A DNA stretch of 31,023 bases, from positions 62,001 through 93,023 of the IMG/VR virus record IMGVR_UViG_3300011725_000001; one strand, given 5' to 3'. Position numbers and translations under genes: made by a program. The first letter of the stretch is position 1; every line of letters begins with the position of its first letter. Below are positions 1-31,023 of the stretch, piece after piece. Below the pieces are notes generated by a model, which made no database searches, had not been told where the DNA came from, and was given only the letters and a program-made list of their open reading frames with translations. This DNA is from an uncultured virus (IMG/VR IMGVR_UViG_3300011725_000001). Taxonomy: Duplodnaviria; Heunggongvirae; Uroviricota; Caudoviricetes.

Positions 1-204
1 GTGACGCGTCCTGCCCTGGAGCATCTGCGCGTAACGCTCGACTTTGACGAAAACGCCGTGCTGGTGGCCATGAGCTATCTTGGCTACATGACGCAGAAGG
101 AATACGAAACCGGACGCGTGCGCCCGCCGTCCGTTTTACTGCAGGCATTCTGGTTGATTGTTGCAGCCGCTGCGCTTTACTGCGCGGTTCTCCTCGCAGG
201 TTAA
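1..204 (+). CDS. hypothetical protein, probably 5'-truncated, with hydrophobic C-terminal helix
   Basis: Open frame from the window edge; C-terminal VLLQAFWLIVAAAALYCAVLLAG; followed by a hairpin. Confidence 0.55.
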   Translation: MTRPALEHLRVTLDFDENAVLVAMSYLGYMTQKEYETGRVRPPSVLLQAFWLIVAAAALYCAVLLAG

Positions 205-213
205 ATTTATACC

Positions 214-236
214 AGGCAGGGGATCTCCCCCTGCCT
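214..236 (+). terminator. hairpin, possible terminator
   Basis: AGGCAGGGG-ATCTC-CCCCTGCCT 9-bp stem just after the stop codon; weak T-tract. Confidence 0.5.
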
Positions 237-260
237 CTTACAGTAACTCCCGCCAAAAAT

Positions 261-277
261 CACACGCAATTCTAAAA
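261..277 (+). promoter_or_regulatory. candidate C1-type operator upstream of pmgS
   Basis: CACACGCAATTCTAAAA matches the motif YACAYRYRWTTCTAAAW seen four times; adjacent to a possible promoter TAGACA(285-290)-16 bp-TAGAAT(307-312). Confidence 0.6.
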
Positions 278-346
278 CATTCTATAGACAGTGGTTAATT
301 TCACGTTAGAATCAGCCGCAAATTTACAGCGGATCTGAAACCAATC

Positions 347-1636
347 ATGACTTCTCAAAATGTTCTCAAGCAGCTGCAGAAACTCCCTGAATGCCCCGTT
401 GACGATGAAGTACTTCACCAGACGTTTGTAACGGCCTATGGCCAGCTGAGTTCTATGCGCAAACGCCTGAAACTCGACGATCTTGAAAAGCGCCTGCTGG
501 ACAACTGCCTGTCTGCGCTGGAGCAGGTGCAGATTGATATCAACCTGCGCCTTAACCACGAAGCTGATACCTATAACGTGCTGGCAGATGCGCTGGAGCA
601 CGTCCAGCAGGAGCTGGACGGCCATTCCGTGCTGGCCGCAGAGATAGCTCAGATTCGCCTTGAGGCGAAGAACGCCGCTGATGAAGCCATTCAGGAAGCC
701 CGTATTCGTGAAGGTGAGGCCGAAAATCGCGCTATCAATGCTGAAAACGCCCGTGATCGCAACGCAGATGCGCTGGTTACCGCTCAGCTGGCGCTGACCA
801 CTCTGAATCAGGAATTTACACACTACCGCCGCAAGAATCCTGAACGCCTGGCGTCGGATCTGCAGGAGCGCGACAAAACCATTTCTCAGCACCGCGCCGA
901 CCGAAAAAAGCAGAGCGCACTGATACAGGAACTGCAGCAGAAGCTGAATATTGCAGATAAAGAAGTGGGTAAAGAGCGTCGCCTGCGAGGTGAGACGGCC
1001 AACGATCTCATTAAACTCACTGCCTCGCACAATCATTTGAAAGAGCGCGTGGAGTTTCACGACGGGCAGGAAGATGTGGCGCAATTCCTGCTGCAGCTGC
1101 CGGACGGCAGCGGTGACGTGGGCTGCTATATCTATAACTTCCACTTCGGGCTTAGCGTGTTTCACGGCATCCGTGACGTGTCCATTGAGACGGCAAATTT
1201 CCACTACCAGATCCGCACGGCGATGATGCTGGCAATGGACGTGGTGCCGGGTATATGGGGCAATCCGGTGTTCCGCATCCTGCCTGATTTACTCCCTATG
1301 TGGGACACGGCCATCAACGACGAACTGCATGAGCGCATCATGACCCGCCTGGCGCTGGACTTCCCACGACTCCACAAGCGCATCATGGACGGTAAGGCCG
1401 CGCCGGTCTCCGAGCTCGCTATCCCGGCGCGTGCGCTTAACGCGCTGGTAAAAGCCGGTTATGACACGGTGGCGGCTGTGGGCGGTGAGCTACCGCCGGA
1501 ACTGGTGAAGGTCAAAGGGCTAAGCGAGGCCACGGTAGACGAGATCCGCGCTGCTGTTAACAGCTGGTGCATTGCCTGGTCAAAAACCAATGGCGACATT
1601 GAAAACCTCAAAAACCCAAATACCAGACGTCGTTAA
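347..1636 (+). CDS. pmgS: P1 PmgS-like protein (coiled coil with C-terminal HhH/alpha-CTD-like domain)
   Basis: 429 aa; N-terminal DDLEKRLLDN...NHEADTYNVLADA and C-terminal AWSKTNG resemble recalled P1 PmgS; position upstream of lpa fits. Confidence 0.75.
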   Translation: MTSQNVLKQLQKLPECPVDDEVLHQTFVTAYGQLSSMRKRLKLDDLEKRLLDNCLSALEQVQIDINLRLNHEADTYNVLADALEHVQQELDGHSVLAAEIAQIRLEAKNAADEAIQEARIREGEAENRAINAENARDRNADALVTAQLALTTLNQEFTHYRRKNPERLASDLQERDKTISQHRADRKKQSALIQELQQKLNIADKEVGKERRLRGETANDLIKLTASHNHLKERVEFHDGQEDVAQFLLQLPDGSGDVGCYIYNFHFGLSVFHGIRDVSIETANFHYQIRTAMMLAMDVVPGIWGNPVFRILPDLLPMWDTAINDELHERIMTRLALDFPRLHKRIMDGKAAPVSELAIPARALNALVKAGYDTVAAVGGELPPELVKVKGLSEATVDEIRAAVNSWCIAWSKTNGDIENLKNPNTRRR

Positions 1637-2134: not shown

Positions 2135-2306
2135 GTTCGTAACAGGCCGCCCCCGGTAGTCTCCAGATTTTCCGGGTGTGTTATGAGTAGGGTGAACGGC
2201 ATGTAGCCCCTCCTGTCACGGCAGTGAACGCGGTTTTGGACTATCCCGCGCATAGAACGCCCCGTGAGGCTTAAACAAGTTCCCGCCTGATCCCCGTAAG
2301 GGATCG

Positions 2307-2383
2307 CCATTTGTGAGCGTGCTGGCATCCTCTTGCTGCCTGGCGACGGGTGTAACTACCTCTGACAGCACGCTCACAAATGG
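2307..2383 (+). repeat. perfect 18-bp inverted repeat (long RNA stem)
   Basis: CCATTTGTGAGCGTGCTG (2307-2324) / CAGCACGCTCACAAATGG (2366-2383). Confidence 0.85.
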
Positions 2384-2496
2384 GGGAATGCGGCTATGCG
2401 CACGCGGGGCGGAACTCAGATATATACTCTTGGTAACTGTTCAATATCCCCGTCCGTAGGTTCCGTATCGGACAGCTGGAGGCACCAGCCCCCCAT
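2380..2496 (+). ncRNA. tRNA-shaped structured RNA
   Basis: Closing stem ATGGGGG/CCCCCAT, 5' hairpin GCGG-CTATGCG-CACGC, two internal stems, 3' hairpin GCTGG-AGGCA-CCAGC stacked on the closing stem. Confidence 0.6.
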
Positions 2497-2609
2497 GCAT
2501 TACACGCCAACACCGGGCGACGCGCTGCTTACTGGCTAATTTGGCTGCTGGCAGGGCAAGGTCAGCGGCAGACCTCAAAAAAGTTCGTGACAGCCGGGAA
2601 AGACCGGCA

Positions 2610-2688
2610 CACAACGGTGAGAGCACTGGGCGGAGACTGGTAAAGGCTCCGTTATCCGGGCAGGGAGTCAGTGCTCTCAGCCGTTGTG
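2610..2688 (+). repeat. 19-bp stem with one bulge (RNase III-type substrate candidate)
   Basis: CACAACGG-TGAGAGCACTG / CAGTGCTCTCA-G-CCGTTGTG; related stems at 3137-3177 and 3539-3577. Confidence 0.75.
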
Positions 2689-2857
2689 GTGATTGCTTTA
2701 ACACACCGTAGGAGTTGTGGAGTCAATCCACGGGGCGAAAGCCCTGCCGGCGAATCGACGCCGGCGGTCAGCGATGGGCTGCGAAGGCAAAGCGGGTATC
2801 ACTCCCGCCTCATTGAACAATCGCGCTAACGGAAACCGATCACAGCAACGCGTTTAT

Positions 2858-2941
2858 GGTGATGTAGCTCAGGGGAATGAGCGTCCGGCTTTAACTCAGG
2901 AGTACGGAAGGTCGCTGGTTCAAATCCAGCCGTCACTGCCA
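2858..2941 (+). tRNA. tRNA-like RNA with expanded anticodon arm (84 nt); isotype not assignable
   Basis: Acceptor GGTGATG/CGTCACT, TA-GCTC...GAGC D-arm, TCCG...CGGA enclosing 17 nt, AGGTC variable loop, GCTGG-TTCAAAT-CCAGC, ends GCCA. Confidence 0.8.
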
Positions 2942-3176
2942 GTTTCAGTACAGACCAGTTGCATTGGAGACAGCATCCCTAACAGACAGGACACGATATG
3001 CCGTTTTTAGCGTTTGCTGCAGAGCATCCAGGCCTCACCATCATTTACACGCTGGTGATCATTTACGGCTTTGAAACGGTTATTAAAGCCTGTCGCAGCG
3101 ACGCGAAGAAAAAGCGCCGCAAATAGCACGACACCCCAACAGGAAAGCGCATTAGCCGCTCAGTGCTCTCTCCGTT

Positions 3177-4071: not shown

Positions 4072-4650
4072 ATGAACGATCAACAAATAAACGGAATGGT
4101 TGGCATGATTGCCGGCGCTGCAGGCAACTATACCGGTGACTATATGGCGCTGCTGAACGTTCTGGAGCACCTGGGCTTTGTGGTAACGCACCAGTCACAG
4201 ACCGCAACAGACTGGTCAGCCACGGTGAGCAAAGGCGCACTGACCATGACCGCCCGCGGGGAATCGCTTAATCATGCTGCCTGTCTGGCCATGCTGAAGC
4301 TGAACGATCTGATCCTGCGCAACGAGCAGCTGATAGACGAGGGCATGCTGAAATTCAGGGAAGAGGGCGCGCCGATAGCCGTCGCGCATGTGTGGCTCTC
4401 TGACGGCGCAAAAGTGGCACGTAAAGCGTGGGGAGAGGGAACACATCTGCGCCTCAACAGAGGCACCACACGGCACCCGCTAAACGGCACCGATATGTAC
4501 GGCGTGCCGGCGCGATTCTTTGACCACGATCCGCAGGCGTCCGTAACGCGTATGCCTCAGTTCGTTCTGACCAATACTGAGCAGCTGACAACGGCTGACT
4601 GGACGCCCGTAACCGCCGATCTGCTGGCAAGCGACTGGAGACTGATTTAG
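4072..4650 (+). CDS. phage ABA-sandwich-like domain fused to a DUF2829/Tad2-like domain
   Basis: C-terminal GAKVARKAW...WTPVTADLLASDW fits the DUF2829 pattern; N-terminal YTGD...WSA...ARGESLNHAACLAMLK fits the ABA-sandwich pattern. Confidence 0.7.
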   Translation: MNDQQINGMVGMIAGAAGNYTGDYMALLNVLEHLGFVVTHQSQTATDWSATVSKGALTMTARGESLNHAACLAMLKLNDLILRNEQLIDEGMLKFREEGAPIAVAHVWLSDGAKVARKAWGEGTHLRLNRGTTRHPLNGTDMYGVPARFFDHDPQASVTRMPQFVLTNTEQLTTADWTPVTADLLASDWRLI

Positions 4651-5209: not shown

Positions 5210-5923
5210 TTGGCTGAAGACACCCATGCTCCTCGTCAACCTATACAAGACCTCCTCGGCGCGTTACACGATAAGTTTGGTCACAACTTAAAAGAAGCTG
5301 TTGATGTTTCAACGGCACCTCTTTTAGAAGAGATAGATCTTAATTCCAGAATAATTGGTGCCTTTCAAGCTGCACTTATTAAAGAATACAAAGAAGACGC
5401 TCATAAAACAGGATGTGCTGAAATACTTGATGAGGTTTTCAGTGACTTTGCAATTGCAATGTACCTTAATTCAATCGGCCTTATTGTTCCGGCGCGAATG
5501 TCTACAAGGAGAGCGTTTGAGCTTGGACTTTCTGTCGTATACATGTGGGATATGCCACAGGAATACTGGGGTTGGAAAAAATGCGATCAAGATTTAAGTT
5601 TCTCTGCAATGGTTTCACACTTGAATTCTTTAGGTTATTGCGAATATATGCAGCAATTAAGCAAAGGGTCGCGAAATTCATGCTTTTGCGATCAAACAAC
5701 TTTTCAAAGGCTTTATAGAATTCTTAGTAATACTGTTCACGGTAAATTTGCCGATCTACCGGCATTGGCACCGGAGCGATTTTCAACAATTTCAAATGGA
5801 CTATTAGATCATCTACAGCTAATCGTCGAGACTCAGAAAGCTGTTATATCTTTACTTTTTGGCCGTTTCTCCGAGCTTGAGCAAAAAATTTGCACTATAT
5901 TTCCTCAAATCAAAAGGAATTAA
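5210..5923 (+). CDS. HEPN-like helical protein (putative RNase effector)
   Basis: TTG start after TAAGG; motifs RRAFE and LYRILSNTVHG fit the R..E / Y..LS..VH pattern of divergent HEPN families. Confidence 0.6.
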   Translation: MAEDTHAPRQPIQDLLGALHDKFGHNLKEAVDVSTAPLLEEIDLNSRIIGAFQAALIKEYKEDAHKTGCAEILDEVFSDFAIAMYLNSIGLIVPARMSTRRAFELGLSVVYMWDMPQEYWGWKKCDQDLSFSAMVSHLNSLGYCEYMQQLSKGSRNSCFCDQTTFQRLYRILSNTVHGKFADLPALAPERFSTISNGLLDHLQLIVETQKAVISLLFGRFSELEQKICTIFPQIKRN

Positions 5924-5927
5924 ATGT

Positions 5928-7688
5928 ATGATCATACAAACCACAACATCAAACCTGAGCGGAGAAGATCTCCTGCAAACAGCAAGATGTGAAGACTTGT
6001 TATACGACCAAATAAAGATGGTATCAGTATTAGGTGATTTTGAAAGGCGCATTATTGACTCGTTGAAAGGGAGTGGTGCCAACCTGCTTGAAGGTGCCCG
6101 AGGTGTTGGAAAATCTATGCTACTCCGCATGGCGGAAATTGAGTTAGACAAAGAATTTCCTGCAGATAAAAAACTTGGAGTCTATGTAAATTTCAAAACC
6201 AGTACTTTACTTGAAGGTGTTAAGGCTGATGAACGTGATGCTTTTCAGATTTGGGTTAATATAAAAATTTTAGAAGCCTTGCACGAAAAAATGCTTACAT
6301 TAAATCTAATTGCAAAAACTGGAGTAGCTGACCCATATCAGCGAGTTTTTGGGGTATCTTCCGTACTCGAAACAAAAGCAATGCTTGAAGAGAAAATCCA
6401 TTTGCTTCAAAAGTTGGCTTTTAGTAGAAATTCACATGCCGAAATTCTTGACCAAATAGGTGAAGATTTTCTAGCAAAAGCCCAAGACACCAGCTTTTTG
6501 GTGAATATAATAAAAGATATAGCGAATTTATTTTCACTTAAAAAAATAATTTTCTTTTTTGACGAGGCAGCTCATACTTTCATTCCTACCCAACAAAATA
6601 TTTTCTTCGAAATATTCAAGCTGTTGCACGGAGGTATGGTTGCCTGCAAAGCAGCAGTTTATCCAACAGTAACTAATTACGGTCGCAATTTTGAAGTTGG
6701 TCAAGATGCAATAGTTTTACCAGCAGTTAGATTCGATCCTGGTGAGTCTGGGCGTCGTGAGAATCGATTGCATTTTCGCTCGATTCTTGATAAGCGCTTA
6801 CCGAAGACAAGCAATTTAAGGAAAAAAATGTTCACAAGGGGCGCGGAGCTTGATCTTTGTATTGATCTCTCAAACGGTAACCCGAGAGCACTCCTACATA
6901 TATTGAATAGCGCGTTATCCAGTAATGCTTCACTATCAGAACGCTCAGTGGGATTAGCAGTCCAGAACTATGTTGATCAGGCATTAATTCCATATCATCA
7001 AAGTCTTTCCAAAAGACTTCCTAAGTACTCATCACATATTAGAGTTGGACTAGATTTATTGAGAGGTTATATCATTCCAGAAGTAAGGACAAAGAATCAC
7101 AGGAAGACAAAGAGTGAGTATCAGTCGGTGTTTTTTACACTGCAACGTGATATGTCGCCTAATTTAAAACTTTCTTTAGATATTCTAAGCTATTCAGGTA
7201 TGGTATCTCAACTTGGAACTGTTAAAATAGCTAACGGAACAGGGCCTCGATATATGATTAACCTAGCTATGATGGCTACTGAAAAAGGATTTGACACTCC
7301 AAAAACTTCAGATGCTATAGCTAGATTAAGCCTTACTGATTACCGTGAATTCTCATCGTCAGATACACAGATAAAAACTTATCTGGATTCACTCTTATTG
7401 CCGACTGAGACCTGTTCACAATGTAATGCTCCACTTCAGCAAAATGCGAAATTTTGTAGTGAATGTGGGAATAAAATTACTGAAGTTTCCATAGTTAGTA
7501 CTTTGCTTGAAGAGTCTATTAGTGAGTTATCAATAAGCGAACGATTGAAAGAAAGAATTCGACCAAAATTTTCCACTGTTGGATCGATAGTTCAAGCAAA
7601 GAGAGATGAACTTATGGCAATCTCTTATATTAAGGATGTTCGTTCAAGGATCATAAAGAATGCAGCTGATGAATTCATTTCCGGCTAA
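5928..7688 (+). CDS. ORC/CDC6- or STAND-like P-loop ATPase with C-terminal zinc ribbon and HhH (alpha-CTD-like) domain
   Basis: Walker A GARGVGKS, Walker B FFFDE, SNGNPR helix, CSQC...CSEC, terminal SISELSISERL...ELMAISYI; ATG 4 nt after the upstream stop. Confidence 0.8.
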   Translation: MIIQTTTSNLSGEDLLQTARCEDLLYDQIKMVSVLGDFERRIIDSLKGSGANLLEGARGVGKSMLLRMAEIELDKEFPADKKLGVYVNFKTSTLLEGVKADERDAFQIWVNIKILEALHEKMLTLNLIAKTGVADPYQRVFGVSSVLETKAMLEEKIHLLQKLAFSRNSHAEILDQIGEDFLAKAQDTSFLVNIIKDIANLFSLKKIIFFFDEAAHTFIPTQQNIFFEIFKLLHGGMVACKAAVYPTVTNYGRNFEVGQDAIVLPAVRFDPGESGRRENRLHFRSILDKRLPKTSNLRKKMFTRGAELDLCIDLSNGNPRALLHILNSALSSNASLSERSVGLAVQNYVDQALIPYHQSLSKRLPKYSSHIRVGLDLLRGYIIPEVRTKNHRKTKSEYQSVFFTLQRDMSPNLKLSLDILSYSGMVSQLGTVKIANGTGPRYMINLAMMATEKGFDTPKTSDAIARLSLTDYREFSSSDTQIKTYLDSLLLPTETCSQCNAPLQQNAKFCSECGNKITEVSIVSTLLEESISELSISERLKERIRPKFSTVGSIVQAKRDELMAISYIKDVRSRIIKNAADEFISG

Positions 7689-22252: not shown

Positions 22253-22459
22253 TCAATGATTGTGTGCCGCTGCAGCTTCCAGCGCGCTGATCTTTCGCAT
22301 GAAAGAATCGGCCTCTGACATATCCACGATCACCTCTCCGCAGGCCAGGCAATGACTCCCTTTCACATCCTCTACAATGTCATCCGGGTTGCCCGTATTC
22401 AGCTGGACGTCGCGTGTGTCATAAACAAAAGCCTCTGCACCGCATGTCGGACATTTCAT
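22253..22459 (-). CDS. MqsA/YgiT-type zinc-finger domain only (no HTH, no toxin gene)
   Basis: MKCPTCG...HCLACGEVI; 68 aa; AGGAG RBS. Confidence 0.75.
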   Translation of the reverse strand: MKCPTCGAEAFVYDTRDVQLNTGNPDDIVEDVKGSHCLACGEVIVDMSEADSFMRKISALEAAAAHNH

Positions 22460-22969: not shown

Positions 22970-23998
22970 TCAACGCTTTGGTTCGATCAATGCTTTGTCC
23001 AGTAAGGCTGTCAGTTTATTAGGGTACCCCTGGACAGCCTTCCATACCGCAAAGTGATAGTACCTTTTCTTCCTCGCGCTATTCATAGATGCAGTCAGAT
23101 CAAAACCATAACCCCTCGTTTTAGCCACTATCTCTAAGTAAAGCCTCATCGTTCGGCCATTCCCATCTTCAAAAGGATGTATCCACGCAAGCTCTTTATG
23201 AGCAAAGACTAACGCGTTTAACATGAGCACCCTGTTTTTACCGACTTTAGGTAAATACTTGGTACTAAAGGCATGGCAAAAGTCTTGCATTGCTTCTGGA
23301 ACTTTAGAGGGATGCATTGTTGGGTGAGAACGACTTCCTATAACTAGCTCATGGGTTCGGTATTCACCTGCCCATGAATATATTCCTCTGAATAGCGCGT
23401 GATGACATTCGCAAAATGCTTTCTCTCCCATATGAAGATTCTGATTTGTTAAGTACCTGATTATAAGCCTATAGCTTCTTATAGGTGCAAAGATCTCTTC
23501 AATTTTGTCGAGTTCGTCCTGATAGACAGCGTAAACTTGATTTGGGATAGCATACGACCGTTCTTCCAAGTTGTTTGAAGCAAGAAAAAAATTGTCTGGC
23601 TTGTATTCTGCCCAAGTTTCAAAAACTTTTGATTGATGGTGGTTAGGGTGTAGCCGAAGCCAAACTTTGCCAAATTCTTTTTTAATACCTATGACTGTTG
23701 CACATACCAGCGGTTGTATAATCCTGCCAAAGAAGTAAACAACAGAGTCTCCCATTTGGATTTCTTCTCTGTTTGTATCAAAATAAGGATTTTTATATCT
23801 TTCAAGATGCGCAATAGAAGGTACGGGGAAATGTACTTTAGAACCGATAATCAGTTCTTCCCGTTTTTTATTCCAGTAAATGTGAGTTTTACCATGTTTT
23901 GATGGTGTAGTTTTTAGATGAACAATTTTATATTTTTTGAAAAAAGGGTCATTAAGATGTACGACATTATCTGGAGTTCTTATGCGTTTTTTCATCAA
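22970..23998 (-). CDS. Fic-domain AMPylase with extra N-terminal domain
   Basis: Canonical HPFEDGNGRTMR and WAGEYRT; AT-rich. Confidence 0.88.
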   Translation of the reverse strand: MMKKRIRTPDNVVHLNDPFFKKYKIVHLKTTPSKHGKTHIYWNKKREELIIGSKVHFPVPSIAHLERYKNPYFDTNREEIQMGDSVVYFFGRIIQPLVCATVIGIKKEFGKVWLRLHPNHHQSKVFETWAEYKPDNFFLASNNLEERSYAIPNQVYAVYQDELDKIEEIFAPIRSYRLIIRYLTNQNLHMGEKAFCECHHALFRGIYSWAGEYRTHELVIGSRSHPTMHPSKVPEAMQDFCHAFSTKYLPKVGKNRVLMLNALVFAHKELAWIHPFEDGNGRTMRLYLEIVAKTRGYGFDLTASMNSARKKRYYHFAVWKAVQGYPNKLTALLDKALIEPKR

Positions 23999-26638: not shown

Positions 26639-27001
26639 TTAACGCCACTTTGGCAGGCCAAGCTGGTCAAATTCCACGTACAGCGGCAGGTCTGTTGTAT
26701 GCCGATGCCCCACCAGCGACTCCCGGCGCACCGGAATTTCGTCATACTCCACGGCGGTTTTATAGAAGTGTGCCGCCTCTATCGGATCTTCAAAGCACCA
26801 GCGGTACACGTAAGCGTCAGTGGGCGTGATCCCCATGCAGACGCTGAGCGTATACAGCAGCTGCAGCAGCCCGCACCAGCTGCCATCGGATAGCTGGCGG
26901 GCGTGGAGTATATGGCATTTGTTAGTCAGGAAGTCGCGCACTTCGCTTTCCGGCCAGCCCTCAAACGAGCCCCAGCCGTATTGCCTTAAACGGTCGTCCA
27001 T
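26639..27001 (-). CDS. hypothetical phage protein
   Basis: 120 aa; TGATG coupling with the upstream ORF. Confidence 0.7.
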   Translation of the reverse strand: MDDRLRQYGWGSFEGWPESEVRDFLTNKCHILHARQLSDGSWCGLLQLLYTLSVCMGITPTDAYVYRWCFEDPIEAAHFYKTAVEYDEIPVRRESLVGHRHTTDLPLYVEFDQLGLPKWR

Positions 27002-27309
27002 CAGCGCGCGAACGCCGGATTGGTGCTGGTGGCCAGCGCGGGCTTTTGGGACGGTTCACGCATGACATACACGGGAAACTCAATGCTCGCTGCCTTATCG
27101 TGAAAGAGCGGCACTGTCCGTGCCTCTGCGCCACCAGAAGCGGCGATCTCCACGTTTCCTACTGGTTGCCCGTAGATATCGTTAAAACACTCTGCGAGCG
27201 CCTGAGCGACGCTGTAATACGCCGGGTCAAAATCGGTACTGCCGTCAGGTTGCGGCTCCATGCTAAAGCCATGCGCCAGAAACAGCGCCCTGATTTCCTG
27301 TTTAATCAC
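27001..27309 (-). CDS. hypothetical phage protein (start uncertain)
   Basis: IRALFLAHGF...QPDGSTD motif typical of phage ORFs; GTG at 27309 chosen. Confidence 0.5.
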   Translation of the reverse strand: MIKQEIRALFLAHGFSMEPQPDGSTDFDPAYYSVAQALAECFNDIYGQPVGNVEIAASGGAEARTVPLFHDKAASIEFPVYVMREPSQKPALATSTNPAFAR

Positions 27310-27418
27310 TGGTGTTCTAATTCTGTTGCAGCAGTGATGCACCGTCTCTCGCATAATGTTGACGGATGTCAACACCAAGAATAGGATGCTTCTATTTAGA
27401 AAAGAAAGAGGAGGTACT

Positions 27419-27976
27419 ATGGCGCTTTATAGCTTCACTCTGACACTTTCAGGCGTAACGTTTGAGACCGAAGGACTGGAAGATGCATTATTTAATAGCG
27501 GCTGTGAGGATGCACTGATTTGCGCATATGGCCATTCCGTTTATCTGGGATTTGACCGCGAAGCAAAATCCCTGGATGAAGCCATTGCGTCTGCAGTTGA
27601 TAACGTGGAATCAGCCGGAATTGGCGCTATAGTTGCATCTGTCGATTCGGCGCTGGTGGGGCTGAGCGACATTGCGGAGAACACCGAAATGTCACGCCAG
27701 GCAATCGCCATGCTCAAAGACGGCACGCGCGGAAGCGGCAATTTCCCCTGCCCGGTCCAGCGCATCAAAGGCCAGTCTCCGCTTTGGGATTGGGCTGACG
27801 TTACTGAATGGCTGGCAAAAAATGGTCGAATTAAAGCGGATAGCGAACTGATTGTTAACGCCCACACCCTCAGTAAGTGGAATCTGGCGCTAAGAGCCAG
27901 TATCTCAAAGGACTTTGCAGAAGTAGAATCTATTGCCACCAGATTGATTGAGCGCCGTCACCTGACGCACTCATGA
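27419..27976 (+). CDS. HicB-like fold plus AlpA-type HTH DNA-binding protein (putative antitoxin, no upstream toxin)
   Basis: GAGGAGG RBS; FDREAKSLDEAI.SA...V and LVGLSDIA....MSRQAI...FP.P...PLWDW. Confidence 0.75.
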   Translation: MALYSFTLTLSGVTFETEGLEDALFNSGCEDALICAYGHSVYLGFDREAKSLDEAIASAVDNVESAGIGAIVASVDSALVGLSDIAENTEMSRQAIAMLKDGTRGSGNFPCPVQRIKGQSPLWDWADVTEWLAKNGRIKADSELIVNAHTLSKWNLALRASISKDFAEVESIATRLIERRHLTHS

Positions 27977-27992
27977 ATAATATGGAGAAATC

Positions 27993-28175
27993 ATGACCAT
28001 ACTGAAAAACACCCTGCCTCCTGAAGACGAAGTGCAGTTTCTGGCTTATCTTGAACATGATTTCAGTACACATCCAGAGAACATTATCCCGGCATCTGTA
28101 CTTTACTGGGAAAGAATAAAGGCGTTAGCTGCTGGTGTGGAAGTAGATTTAGACGCTACGCTCGCTAATCACTGA
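27993..28175 (+). CDS. PrlF/SohA antitoxin C-terminal-like peptide
   Basis: FLAYLEHDF..HPE...RIKAL..GVEVDLDATL; GGAG RBS; lacks the AbrB domain. Confidence 0.65.
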   Translation: MTILKNTLPPEDEVQFLAYLEHDFSTHPENIIPASVLYWERIKALAAGVEVDLDATLANH

Positions 28176-28201
28176 AAGCACGATTTTGATGGTGGTTTAA
28201 C

Positions 28202-28342
28202 ATGGCAACGCTGAAAGAATTAATGGACAGGCTCACCCCGGAACGCCGCGCTCGCGTGAAAGCCCGCGCGGCTGAACTCAACAAAGAAATCGAAGCCAGC
28301 ACGCGCCGGAAAGCGCAAAAAGATATAACAAAGGCTGACTAA
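28202..28342 (+). CDS. HigA-type antitoxin N-terminal-like peptide (46 aa, no HTH)
   Basis: Hand-translated MATLKELMDRLTPERRARVKARAAEL...; GGTGG upstream. Confidence 0.55.
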   Translation: MATLKELMDRLTPERRARVKARAAELNKEIEASTRRKAQKDITKAD

Positions 28343-28530
28343 TCGCGGTGCTGGTGGCGCTGAATGCTCGCCATATCCGGCACGGCACCGCCAAGCTCCG
28401 ACAGCTTTTTAGCAGCCTGCACCCGGATAAACGTCTTTAATGCCTCATTCAGAATATCTGCTTCGCCCATGCCCGGATTACCCAGCTCCAGCGCATACAG
28501 TTCATCATCAATCGTGAAAGTAACCTTCAT
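28339..28530 (-). CDS. VapB-type antitoxin (no vapC)
   Basis: MKVTFTIDDELY...EALKTFIRVQAAKKLSELGG..PDM. Confidence 0.7.
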   Translation of the reverse strand: MKVTFTIDDELYALELGNPGMGEADILNEALKTFIRVQAAKKLSELGGAVPDMASIQRHQHRD

Positions 28531-30842: not shown

Positions 30843-31023
30843 TCATCGCACAGCTATTCTTTGTAATTCTGCTGCAATCATCGCTCTATCAGCTTCTCCG
30901 GTAGCTGCGCTGACGGTCAGCTCTTCCAGAGCATTACCTTCCGGGTTCAAATCTATACCGTTACGGCGCAGGAAAAGCATCATTGCGAAAAATGCGGTTC
31001 GCTTATTATAGTCAGCGAACACA
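30843..31023 (-). CDS. doc: Doc toxin, C-terminal part (runs off window)
   Basis: Hand-translated VFADYNKRTAFFAMMLFLRRNG...LEELTVSAATGE resembles P1 Doc. Confidence 0.85.
   Translation of the reverse strand, partial: VFADYNKRTAFFAMMLFLRRNGIDLNPEGNALEELTVSAATGEADRAMIAAELQRIAVR

Follow-up and report, generated by a model that had tools for sequence, protein, structure and literature searches.

Few defence and plasmid-addiction modules of bacteria are as numerous as toxin–antitoxin (TA) systems. To our knowledge, very few phage counter-measures are known against the common type II toxins that cleave mRNA (mRNases). The phage antitoxins and antitoxin mimics whose action has been demonstrated include T4 Dmd, which acts against RnlA and LsoA, the pseudo-ToxI of PhiTE, and proteins of the NADAR/AdfA type, which act against DarTG (PMC11825919; PMC12548467). 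Orphan antitoxins have been described in anti-defence islands of plasmid leading regions, where they were proposed to act against TA systems of the host or of rivals (Samuel et al., Nature 2024, PMC11541004), and PrlF, MqsA and HigA homologues in viral operational taxonomic units appear in a one-sentence list of a metagenome survey, which reads them as possible counter-defence (PMC12783922). Here we describe a cluster of four short open reading frames (ORFs A to D; Table 1) from what its gene content identifies as a P1-like phage-plasmid of Pantoea. The window, that is, the whole stretch of 31,023 nucleotides that was analyzed, corresponds to bases 62001–93023 of one virus record of 93,023 bp (IMGVR_UViG_3300011725_000001) and forms its final 31 kb. 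A prediction made earlier from the sequence of the window (hereafter the original prediction) had described the cluster as four antitoxins without toxins, two of them trimmed to the toxin-binding half, and had proposed that they are mimics directed against TA systems. All four ORFs are present where that prediction had placed them. Our analysis suggests that three of them, B, C and D, are antitoxin-type genes, and that B and C, together with an MqsA fragment encoded elsewhere in the window, are reduced to the part which in their parent families binds the toxin.

The locus resembles the leading-region islands in that toxin-less antitoxin genes are located on a mobile element among anti-defence genes. 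According to that report, the islands are often bounded by umuCD, and in two relatives of the locus, plasmid pPSP-26e of Pantoea sp. PSNIH1 and metagenome contig L091, umuDC or umuC lies 1–3 kb from the cassette. The genes discussed there, of which hipB is an example, are, however, complete antitoxin genes located on conjugative plasmids, and for them the idea was only proposed, while here the carrier is a phage-plasmid and three genes are trimmed to the toxin-binding domain (PMC11541004). As with Dmd, pseudo-ToxI and NADAR/AdfA, the phage would supply antitoxin activity in trans against TA-based abortive infection. On the other hand, the accounts of these proteins report demonstrated action on type II RnlA, type III ToxN and DarT, whereas the presumed targets here are mRNases of the RelE superfamily and VapC, and the candidate decoys are truncated homologues of host antitoxins (PMC11825919; PMC12548467). 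The chromosomal anti-addiction modules (cited in PMC12548467) likewise oppose an antitoxin homologue to the toxin of another replicon's addiction module, but as summarized there they are complete chromosomal TA systems that guard the host from plasmid toxins, while in the present case it is the invading element that carries fragments, without toxins. At the level of the fragments, residues 1–76 of MqsA alone, when co-expressed, were reported to rescue from MqsR without binding DNA (PMC2791442), and a peptide consisting of residues 3–22 of Vibrio cholerae HigA2 was reported to neutralize HigB2 in vitro (PMC5416850). These fragments are of the same kind as the MqsA piece and ORF C, with the difference that they were made in the laboratory from E. 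coli and V. cholerae proteins, while the MqsA piece and ORF C are natural. The metagenome survey reports the same antitoxin families in viral contigs, but the sentence listing them gives no domain analysis, truncation pattern or context (PMC12783922). In the literature searched (full texts mostly outside the subscription journals, without supplements), antitoxins trimmed to the toxin-binding domain were not found as a feature of phages or phage-plasmids, and neither was a family of jumbo phage proteins limited to the C-terminal part of PrlF (PrlF-C). Hence, orphan antitoxins on mobile elements are already published, while within this literature their trimming to the toxin-binding domain is not.

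ORF B matched the Pfam family PF15937 (PrlF_antitoxin) only at positions 50–98 of 99, with an E value of 4.1e-8 and a score of 33.7 bits, against a cut-off of 32. The match to the NCBIfam models PRK09974/NF007429 covered positions 67–111 of 114, and its score of 34.8 bits did not reach the equivalog cut-off of 125. In an alignment with 42 relatives, including full-length PrlF proteins, ORF B begins where the AbrB-type domain ends. When Pantoea deserta PrlF was compared with the window by tblastn, residues 49–112 were aligned, starting three codons before the ATG of B, and thus this ATG corresponds to an internal methionine of the Enterobacterales PrlF proteins, in the motif IMSRQ. No remnant of PrlF residues 1–48 was detected at the B locus by tblastn in any frame. 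The closest full-length relatives are the PrlF proteins of Enterobacterales chromosomes and conjugative plasmids, which adjoin yhaV, while the homologues of B itself form four clusters of 58–60 amino acids. On the basis of these alignments, ORF B is assigned as the C-terminal half of a PrlF antitoxin without the AbrB/SpoVT DNA-binding domain, as had been predicted. This half is presumed to be the YhaV-binding part by analogy with the usual build of AbrB-type antitoxins.

For ORF C the assignment depended on its relatives, because there was no match in Pfam or NCBIfam, including the helix–turn–helix (HTH) families. A profile built from seven 45–46-amino-acid relatives, each representing a cluster, was searched against 301 Enterobacterales genomes, and it matched the start of a 99-amino-acid protein with an E value of 4.5e-9. 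This protein (L085:1501–1797) contains an HTH_3 domain and is encoded 3′ of a 123-amino-acid toxin of the Gp49 family (PF05973, E value 2.5e-20). Residues 1–30 of ORF C are 60% identical to the N-terminus of this antitoxin (pairwise E value 7e-11), and 19 of 30 residues are shared with antitoxins of this type encoded in two genomes from the genus Pantoea (L111, L112). The closest solved relative of the L085 antitoxin is Mycobacterium tuberculosis HigA2 (PDB 7EWC, E value 8e-8), which aligned from residue 3; other matching structures were M. tuberculosis HigA3 and Streptococcus pneumoniae HigA, while V. cholerae HigA2 was not detectable as a sequence relative. The N-terminal ~25 residues of M. 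tuberculosis HigA2 are described in the structural report as responsible for toxin binding (PMC8420761). Within ORF C residues 1–30 are conserved and the tail is variable, and no HTH remnant was found 3′ of C in any frame. These comparisons identify ORF C as the N-terminal ~30-residue segment of a HigA-type (XRE/HTH_3) antitoxin without the HTH, a segment that by analogy is the toxin-binding part in the parent family. The HigA N-terminal-like label given to it in the original prediction thus agrees with the identity over residues 1–30 and the absence of the HTH, with no support from the family libraries. Other searches with C added little: a word-index search for longer relatives gave none at E values of 0.01 or below, a protein atlas search gave clusters of unnamed small proteins and one weak HTH_37 lead at 0.86, and the C profile matched in IMG/VR solely pPSP-26e. 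Searches of PDB sequences with each of the four ORFs, and with profiles of B and of C, returned chance-level rows only.

The same trimming pattern had been claimed for an MqsA fragment 5′ of the cluster on the minus strand (Table 1), and this holds, since only the zinc-ribbon, MqsR-binding domain is encoded and the protein ends at residue 68. It matched positions 1–61 of 131 of PF15731 with 48.8 bits, against a cut-off of 30, and it keeps all four zinc ligands, Cys3, Cys6, Cys37 and Cys40, as these are given for E. coli MqsA (PMC2791442). The piece is 99% identical in pPSP-26e, and tblastn with it against the collection of cultured phages gave no match. About 500 bp from it lies a gene for a 342-amino-acid Fic-domain protein (window 22970–23998, minus strand; PF02661, E value 7.2e-16; PHROG 10690), which is far longer than a Doc toxin.

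In contrast to these trimmed genes, ORF D is, judged from its relatives, probably a full-length VapB-type (ribbon–helix–helix) antitoxin, which is untrimmed and lacks its toxin. Its match to Pfam PF09957 is weak (17.9 bits, under the cut-off of 23.4). A 66-amino-acid VapB-like protein in a related phage-plasmid contig (L076) nevertheless shares 60% identity with it over 62 codons; the gene there is followed by one for a 124-amino-acid PIN-domain protein, and this intact pair supports the VapB-like label. The L076 proteins are themselves just under their family cut-offs (21.9 bits for VapB, and 22.9 against 23.6 bits for the PIN protein). The position downstream from D is taken by ORF C on the opposite strand, and there is no PIN gene there. 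The L076 pair (2220–2827, minus strand) lies directly 5′ of the ORF A of that contig, a position that differs from that of D in the window.

ORF A did not qualify as an antitoxin in any of the comparisons made. It matched PHROG 2620, labelled as excisionase and transcriptional regulator, with an E value of 1.6e-92, and it was found at 77–86% identity in 28 of 28 related viral loci from IMG/VR; of these, pPSP-26e alone has B, C and D as well. Its ratio of nonsynonymous to synonymous substitution rates (dN/dS), calculated like all those below by the Nei–Gojobori method, is 0.15. It is therefore read from its sequence as a conserved backbone DNA-binding protein or regulator, and the HicB-like label that had been attached to it is not confirmed: a Pfam search gave no HicB family (PF15919 or PF15970) at E values up to 1. 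A structure model of ORF A (mean predicted local distance difference test score, pLDDT, 59.2) contains a confident β-α-β-β-α-β domain in the N-terminal 78 residues. Foldseek with this model gave nothing at E values of 0.001 or below, and among the top 50 VIA-align matches of the N-terminal domain, with Z-scores of 5.5–7.3, there were generic ferredoxin-like folds and no HicB. With the outcome of the Pfam search, a HicB-like reading of A was rejected. About 80 bp 5′ of A many relatives have a conserved ORF of 74–76 amino acids with Cys/His-rich motifs (L053:2694–2918, and the same place in L056, L061, L067, L069 and L070). As a HicA-like candidate this ORF was discarded, having no Pfam match and being absent from this replicon and from pPSP-26e.

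Because A is a backbone regulator, the array consists of three genes, not four; of the original description, the trimming of B and C and the full-length VapB remain. B, C and D are best described from the comparison of loci as an accessory array in a variable cargo site 3′ of A. In other relatives the same site contains a gene for a Bro-N protein, a gene for a DUF7740 protein, or nothing recognizable, and the cargo-site ORFs of some relatives, read by eye, are putative lipoproteins. The start codons and ribosome-binding-site-like sequences claimed for the genes are plausible for A, B and C (Table 1). A sigma-70-like site 5′ of A is a possible promoter of an A-B-C transcript, and B and C are probably co-transcribed with A. 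The support from the consensus scan is weak, with five such sites in the region and 2.8 ± 1.5 in shuffled sequences, and neither the promoter nor the terminator scan of the region rose above shuffled sequence.

The replicon yielded no toxin that would match these antitoxins. When the complete record (93,023 bp) was searched in six frames for toxin families, YhaV, PIN, ParE/RelE, MqsR, Gp49, HigB-like and HicA proteins were not detected; the YhaV and MqsR searches were weak, as control genomes themselves scored under the cut-off, and the YhaV result is backed by tblastn. When the record was searched by tblastn with Pantoea YhaV, the L076 VapC, the RelE/ParE toxin of pPSP-26e and the PemK-like protein described below, there was nothing better than an E value of 0.5. 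Within the reach of these two types of searches, the predicted absence of cognate toxins, both next to the genes and elsewhere on the replicon, is confirmed. Many of the ORFs encoded there match no family. A further antitoxin-type gene was found outside the window. It encodes a HicB-like protein of 149 amino acids (record 2595–3044, minus strand), narrowly under two cut-offs (PF15970, 29.8 against 30 bits; PF15919, 26.8 against 27 bits), which has an HTH-like C-terminal half and is located between genes for a Rep3-type initiator and a Ref-like nuclease. This protein suits the HicB-like/HTH label better than ORF A does. By these assignments the element carries five toxin-less antitoxin-type genes, B, C, D, the MqsA piece and the HicB-like protein, of which three, B, C and the MqsA piece, are reduced to the toxin-binding part. 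The only complete TA pair found on the replicon is a phd-doc pair, which we take to be like that of P1. It consists of a Phd/YefM-like antitoxin of 73 amino acids (record 317–538, minus strand; PF02604, 28.7 bits against a cut-off of 29.8) and a Doc-like ORF that crosses the record ends to finish at window 30843–31022 (minus strand), so that the whole module joins this piece to record 3–538 (minus strand); the Doc identity is putative, being read by eye from gene order and the motif FADYNKRTAF.

The B-C pair is also found outside this type of element. Two metagenome contigs (L091, L092) contain B followed by C in another setting, without A or D, 3′ of a gene for a 154-amino-acid PemK/MazF-family protein (PF02452, E value 3.4e-14) and a hairpin. 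The PemK-like gene (L091:1438–1902, L092:145–609) ends 240 bp 5′ of B-C, and no other antitoxin candidate was seen for it. The stretch between this gene and B contains a strong GC-rich hairpin and a promoter-like site, TTGACA...TAAGAT. In the DNA alignment of the B-C copies homology extends from ~35 nt 5′ of B to about codon 30 of C, after which the sequences diverge. The 26-nt spacer between B and C is conserved across the copies together with its GGTGG, and although the start codon of B is shifted by two codons in L091 and L092, a Shine–Dalgarno sequence (AGGAGG) is still kept. Relatives with full TA operons and random truncations had been named in the original prediction as the finding that would speak against it; what the relatives show is that the truncation boundaries of B-C are identical in four contexts, which indicates that, as far as the alignments go, these truncations are not random. 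The lengths are conserved as well, with the 58–60 amino acids of B and the 45–46 amino acids of C each holding across all of their clusters, seven in the case of C. Between the window and pPSP-26e the DNA identity is 91–95% for B, C and D versus 78% for A, and it therefore seems that the cassette was exchanged more recently than the backbone diverged. Purifying selection was seen for two of the three genes: dN/dS of C, calculated over codons 1–30, is 0.10–0.20 in all but one of six pairs (the exception is the closest pair, L091 and L092, with 0.44), with a synonymous rate (dS) above 1 between the window and pPSP-26e copies and those of L091 and L092, and dN/dS of D is 0.19–0.29. ORF B did not give this signal, as detailed below.

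To see which toxins could be met by such peptides, the genus of Pantoea deserta was surveyed in 75 genomes that each represent one species. YhaV was found in 10 of them and a Gp49-type toxin in 48, often in several copies. Chromosomal prlF-yhaV pairs are present in Pantoea deserta and Erwinia phyllosphaerae, and of the PrlF loci that were examined, 44 of the 49 from genomes and 17 of the 20 from metagenomes have YhaV adjoining PrlF. PrlF-like genes were also found in 168 PLSDB plasmids, mostly conjugative; among them are F-type plasmids in which prlF-yhaV lies beside DUF1380 and DUF4942 genes, surroundings which we take to be the plasmid leading region. On one F-type conjugative plasmid, pECL_B of Enterobacter cloacae ATCC 13047 (L081:1757–3156), an orphan vapB is located directly 5′ of a complete prlF-yhaV in such surroundings, so that the same antitoxin families adjoin each other on an element of another kind.

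Genes limited to PrlF-C are not restricted to this element either. A HMMER search with the B profile against 1.84 billion representative proteins gave 103 matches at E values of 0.001 or below, of which 49 are at most 75 amino acids long (48 start with methionine), 46 have 76–200 and eight more than 200 amino acids. Relatives of the low-GC short forms were located in 12 IMG/VR loci, three of them on contigs of 355–371 kb, with no YhaV hit within 2.5 kb of any of the 12; six short forms from IMG/VR were tested, and for five of them the match to PF15937 is confined to its C-terminal part. Among the cultured phages, tblastn with B found six records, which correspond to four phages: Cronobacter GAP32, Pectobacterium CBB, Erwinia Kaldavass and Xanthomonas XbC2. 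The proteins GAP32_457 (60 amino acids, 43.8 bits) and Kaldavass CDS0155 (61 amino acids, 43.6 bits) match PF15937 at positions 53–99, above the cut-off of 32, and are encoded by syntenic small genes 3′ of a tRNA-Lys gene with no toxin annotated nearby. For jumbo phages such as GAP32 and Kaldavass, if they are strictly lytic, remnants of addiction modules are an unlikely origin of the PrlF-C genes.

Taken together, these data are consistent with B, C, D and the MqsA piece acting as trans-acting decoys that neutralize toxins, a reading to which we assign a probability of about one half. The peptides would be made from promoters of the element itself. They would bind and neutralize in trans mRNases of the RelE superfamily (YhaV, Gp49/HigB-type toxins and MqsR) and VapC toxins of the PIN type, supplied by the host chromosome or by co-resident plasmids. 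The effect would be to weaken the abortive infection or the post-segregational killing that is triggered by the decay of labile resident antitoxins, and without DNA-binding domains the decoys would neither repress the resident operons nor depend on them. The domain trimming is exact in B (family positions 50–98 of 99), in the MqsA piece (1–61 of 131) and in C (residues 1–30), which supports such a role. The sufficiency reported for the fragments of E. coli MqsA and V. cholerae HigA2, the recurrence of PrlF-C proteins in unrelated phages and the DarA-like and Tad2-like genes of the element point the same way. According to the classification summarized in PMC11980606, the RelE/ParE (BECR-fold) superfamily of mRNases includes YhaV as well as the Gp49-type toxins and MqsR, and the three trimmed genes would therefore point at a single toxin class. 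Translation of the peptides, their binding, neutralization and biological role are inferred here from sequence comparisons. The benefit could lie either in evading abortive infection or in avoiding the post-segregational killing caused by plasmids that are displaced.

Several observations weigh against this reading. One concerns selection on B, whose dN/dS of 0.46–1.36, on 9–27 substitutions per pair, is indistinguishable from neutrality. Its substitutions are not rarer at columns conserved in the PrlF family (permutation p 0.26), and they include a Pro-to-Thr change in the DAPL motif; it is because of this lack of measurable constraint on B that our confidence stays near one half. The main weakness of a functional interpretation is in the selection data, and it extends to C. 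In the comparison of window 27993–28342 with L091:2143–2471, dS is 0.24 for B and 1.14 for codons 1–30 of C, while the first ~9 codons of C are nearly identical in DNA. This contrast between adjacent genes suggests a mosaic history, in which C either contains a recombination breakpoint or was converted by higA genes of the host, and hence the constraint on C may be partly inherited from full-length higA donors. For D, the intact vapBC counterpart in L076 means that simple toxin loss would be a sufficient history. Among the 75 genomes of the genus, VapC of the L076 type is rare (3 of 75), and so is MqsR (1 of 75, in a search that was weak because controls fell under the cut-off). Moreover, the PDB sequence searches with B and its profile did not find a solved PrlF–YhaV structure. 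The proposal that the genes are anti-TA mimics thus stands in part: the trimming, the lack of toxins on the replicon, the fixed boundaries and the matching toxins in the host genus speak for it, while the backbone role of A, the possible explanation of D by toxin loss and the unconstrained B do not.

The strongest competitor is decay, in which the genes are leftovers of prlF-yhaV, higBA, vapBC and mqsRA addiction modules whose toxins were deleted first, since toxin loss is harmless, and whose antitoxins are eroding without function. The near-neutral rate of B, the intact vapBC in L076 with a VapB 60% identical to D, the intact RelE/ParE–HTH pair beside the same cassette in pPSP-26e and the variability of the cargo site are in favour of decay, and the gene orders prlF-yhaV and higB-higA are such that a single deletion between tandem modules could leave prlF adjoining higA. 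We nevertheless consider this explanation rather unlikely, because the boundaries of B and C and their Shine–Dalgarno sequences are kept in four contexts, dN/dS of C and D is 0.1–0.3, and three independent remnants all retain the toxin-binding part and never the DNA-binding part. The jumbo phages, whose PrlF-C-only genes of the same size are conserved, would, if strictly lytic, have no need of addiction modules. Action as decoys is plausible, and better supported than simple decay.

The genes could instead be the cognate antitoxins of unrecognized toxins on the element or its close relatives, that is, parts of unconventional TA modules. The PemK/MazF-family gene 5′ of B-C in L091 and L092 would be a candidate toxin, but this replicon lacks it, and in L091 it is set apart from B-C by a strong hairpin. 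The many replicon ORFs without a family match and the Fic-domain protein near the MqsA piece leave room for such toxins; on the other side, B is closest to the PrlF of genuine prlF-yhaV pairs, and the gene 5′ of B here is the backbone gene A, which occurs in 27 related viral loci without B-C. This makes unrecognized partners improbable. That B and C are non-coding chance frames in an intergenic or regulatory stretch is hardly credible: they are short, with 60 and 46 codons, and C is not called as a gene in one of two annotated relatives, yet B scores above the curated Pfam cut-off, C matches real antitoxins at an E value of 7e-11 with dN/dS of 0.1–0.2, and both are called as genes in several independent assemblies.

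If the decoy interpretation is extended to other phages, PrlF-C, the N-terminal part of HigA and the N-terminal part of MqsA could form a portable kit of domain-minimized antitoxins against TA defences based on RelE-superfamily mRNases. Such a kit would be shared by phages of differing lifestyles, that is, this temperate phage-plasmid and the jumbo phages of Cronobacter, Erwinia, Pectobacterium and Xanthomonas, with the ~60-amino-acid proteins ORF B, GAP32_457 and Kaldavass CDS0155 as an undescribed anti-YhaV family. The loss of the DNA-binding domain would then be adaptive, because the decoy is uncoupled from the autoregulation of the resident operon. We put this extension forward tentatively. 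If the peptides do act as decoys, an antitoxin homologue without both a DNA-binding domain and a toxin would become a searchable rule for anti-TA genes in phages and plasmids, and the locus would provide natural minimal toxin-binding peptides for YhaV, Gp49/HigB and MqsR. It would also help to explain how phage-plasmids establish themselves in hosts loaded with TA systems or displace resident plasmids. If they are inactive, the locus is a record of the orderly decay of addiction modules.

The assignment of the element as a P1-like phage-plasmid follows from its gene set. The record has direct terminal repeats and is rated complete. The window contains genes for a PmgS-like head protein, an Lpa-like late activator, P1-type terminase subunits, a ParM partition protein and an integrase-family recombinase, and a Pfam scan of 62 further ORFs showed a Rep3-type initiator, DarA-like anti-restriction proteins, a Ref-like nuclease and tail fibre genes in the rest of the record. 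The closest public relatives of the region are non-mobilizable Pantoea plasmids of ~90 kb, above all pPSP-26e, with 86.5% identity over 1,125 bases. In an independent assembly from 2025 (X5) the entire 1.4-kb stretch is present at >99% identity, and a DNA-level search of the phage collection with the region gave no match. The coordinates of the features are collected in Table 1.

Table 1. Antitoxin-type ORFs, backbone gene and promoter-like site in the window (window coordinates)
Feature	Position	Strand	Description
Sigma-70-like promoter match	27359–27387	+	5′ of A; 9 of 12 consensus positions
ORF A	27419–27976	+	185 amino acids; AGGAGG 5 nt 5′ of ATG
ORF B	27993–28175	+	60 amino acids; GGAG at 27984–27987, 5 nt 5′ of ATG
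ORF C	28202–28342	+	46 amino acids; GGTGG at 28191–28195, 6 nt 5′ of ATG
ORF D	28339–28530	−	63 amino acids; converges on C, stop codons overlapping
MqsA N-terminal zinc-ribbon domain	22253–22459	−	68 amino acids; no HTH-XRE domain; 5.5 kb away

Other genes of the element also have a likely role in counter-defence. A Tad2-like (Thoeris anti-defence 2) domain, PF11195, was found in two proteins, at window 4072–4650 (plus strand; E value 5.4e-11) and at record 49675–49929 (E value 3.9e-6), and the DarA-like proteins are encoded in two pieces of the record (L135:19036–19650 and L136:653–2836). Judged from these Tad2-like and DarA-like genes, the element is rich in counter-defence genes. A 609-amino-acid protein encoded at window 5859–7688 (plus strand) combines an ORC/Cdc6-like AAA region (PF24389, E value 4.9e-11) with a zinc ribbon. 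Such a protein is unusual in a P1-like element; it could have a role in defence or in the control of replication. In pPSP-26e and a near-twin (L001:1152–1955, L002:4976–5779) an intact RelE/ParE toxin (PF05016) is encoded with an HTH_3 antitoxin, and in the window the position of this pair is occupied by two unknown minus-strand genes, 27001–27378 and 26639–27001. Finally, the record CP060164, which is labelled as Acinetobacter venetianus, contains the same block as the Pantoea plasmid, with equal identity to the query (86.5%).

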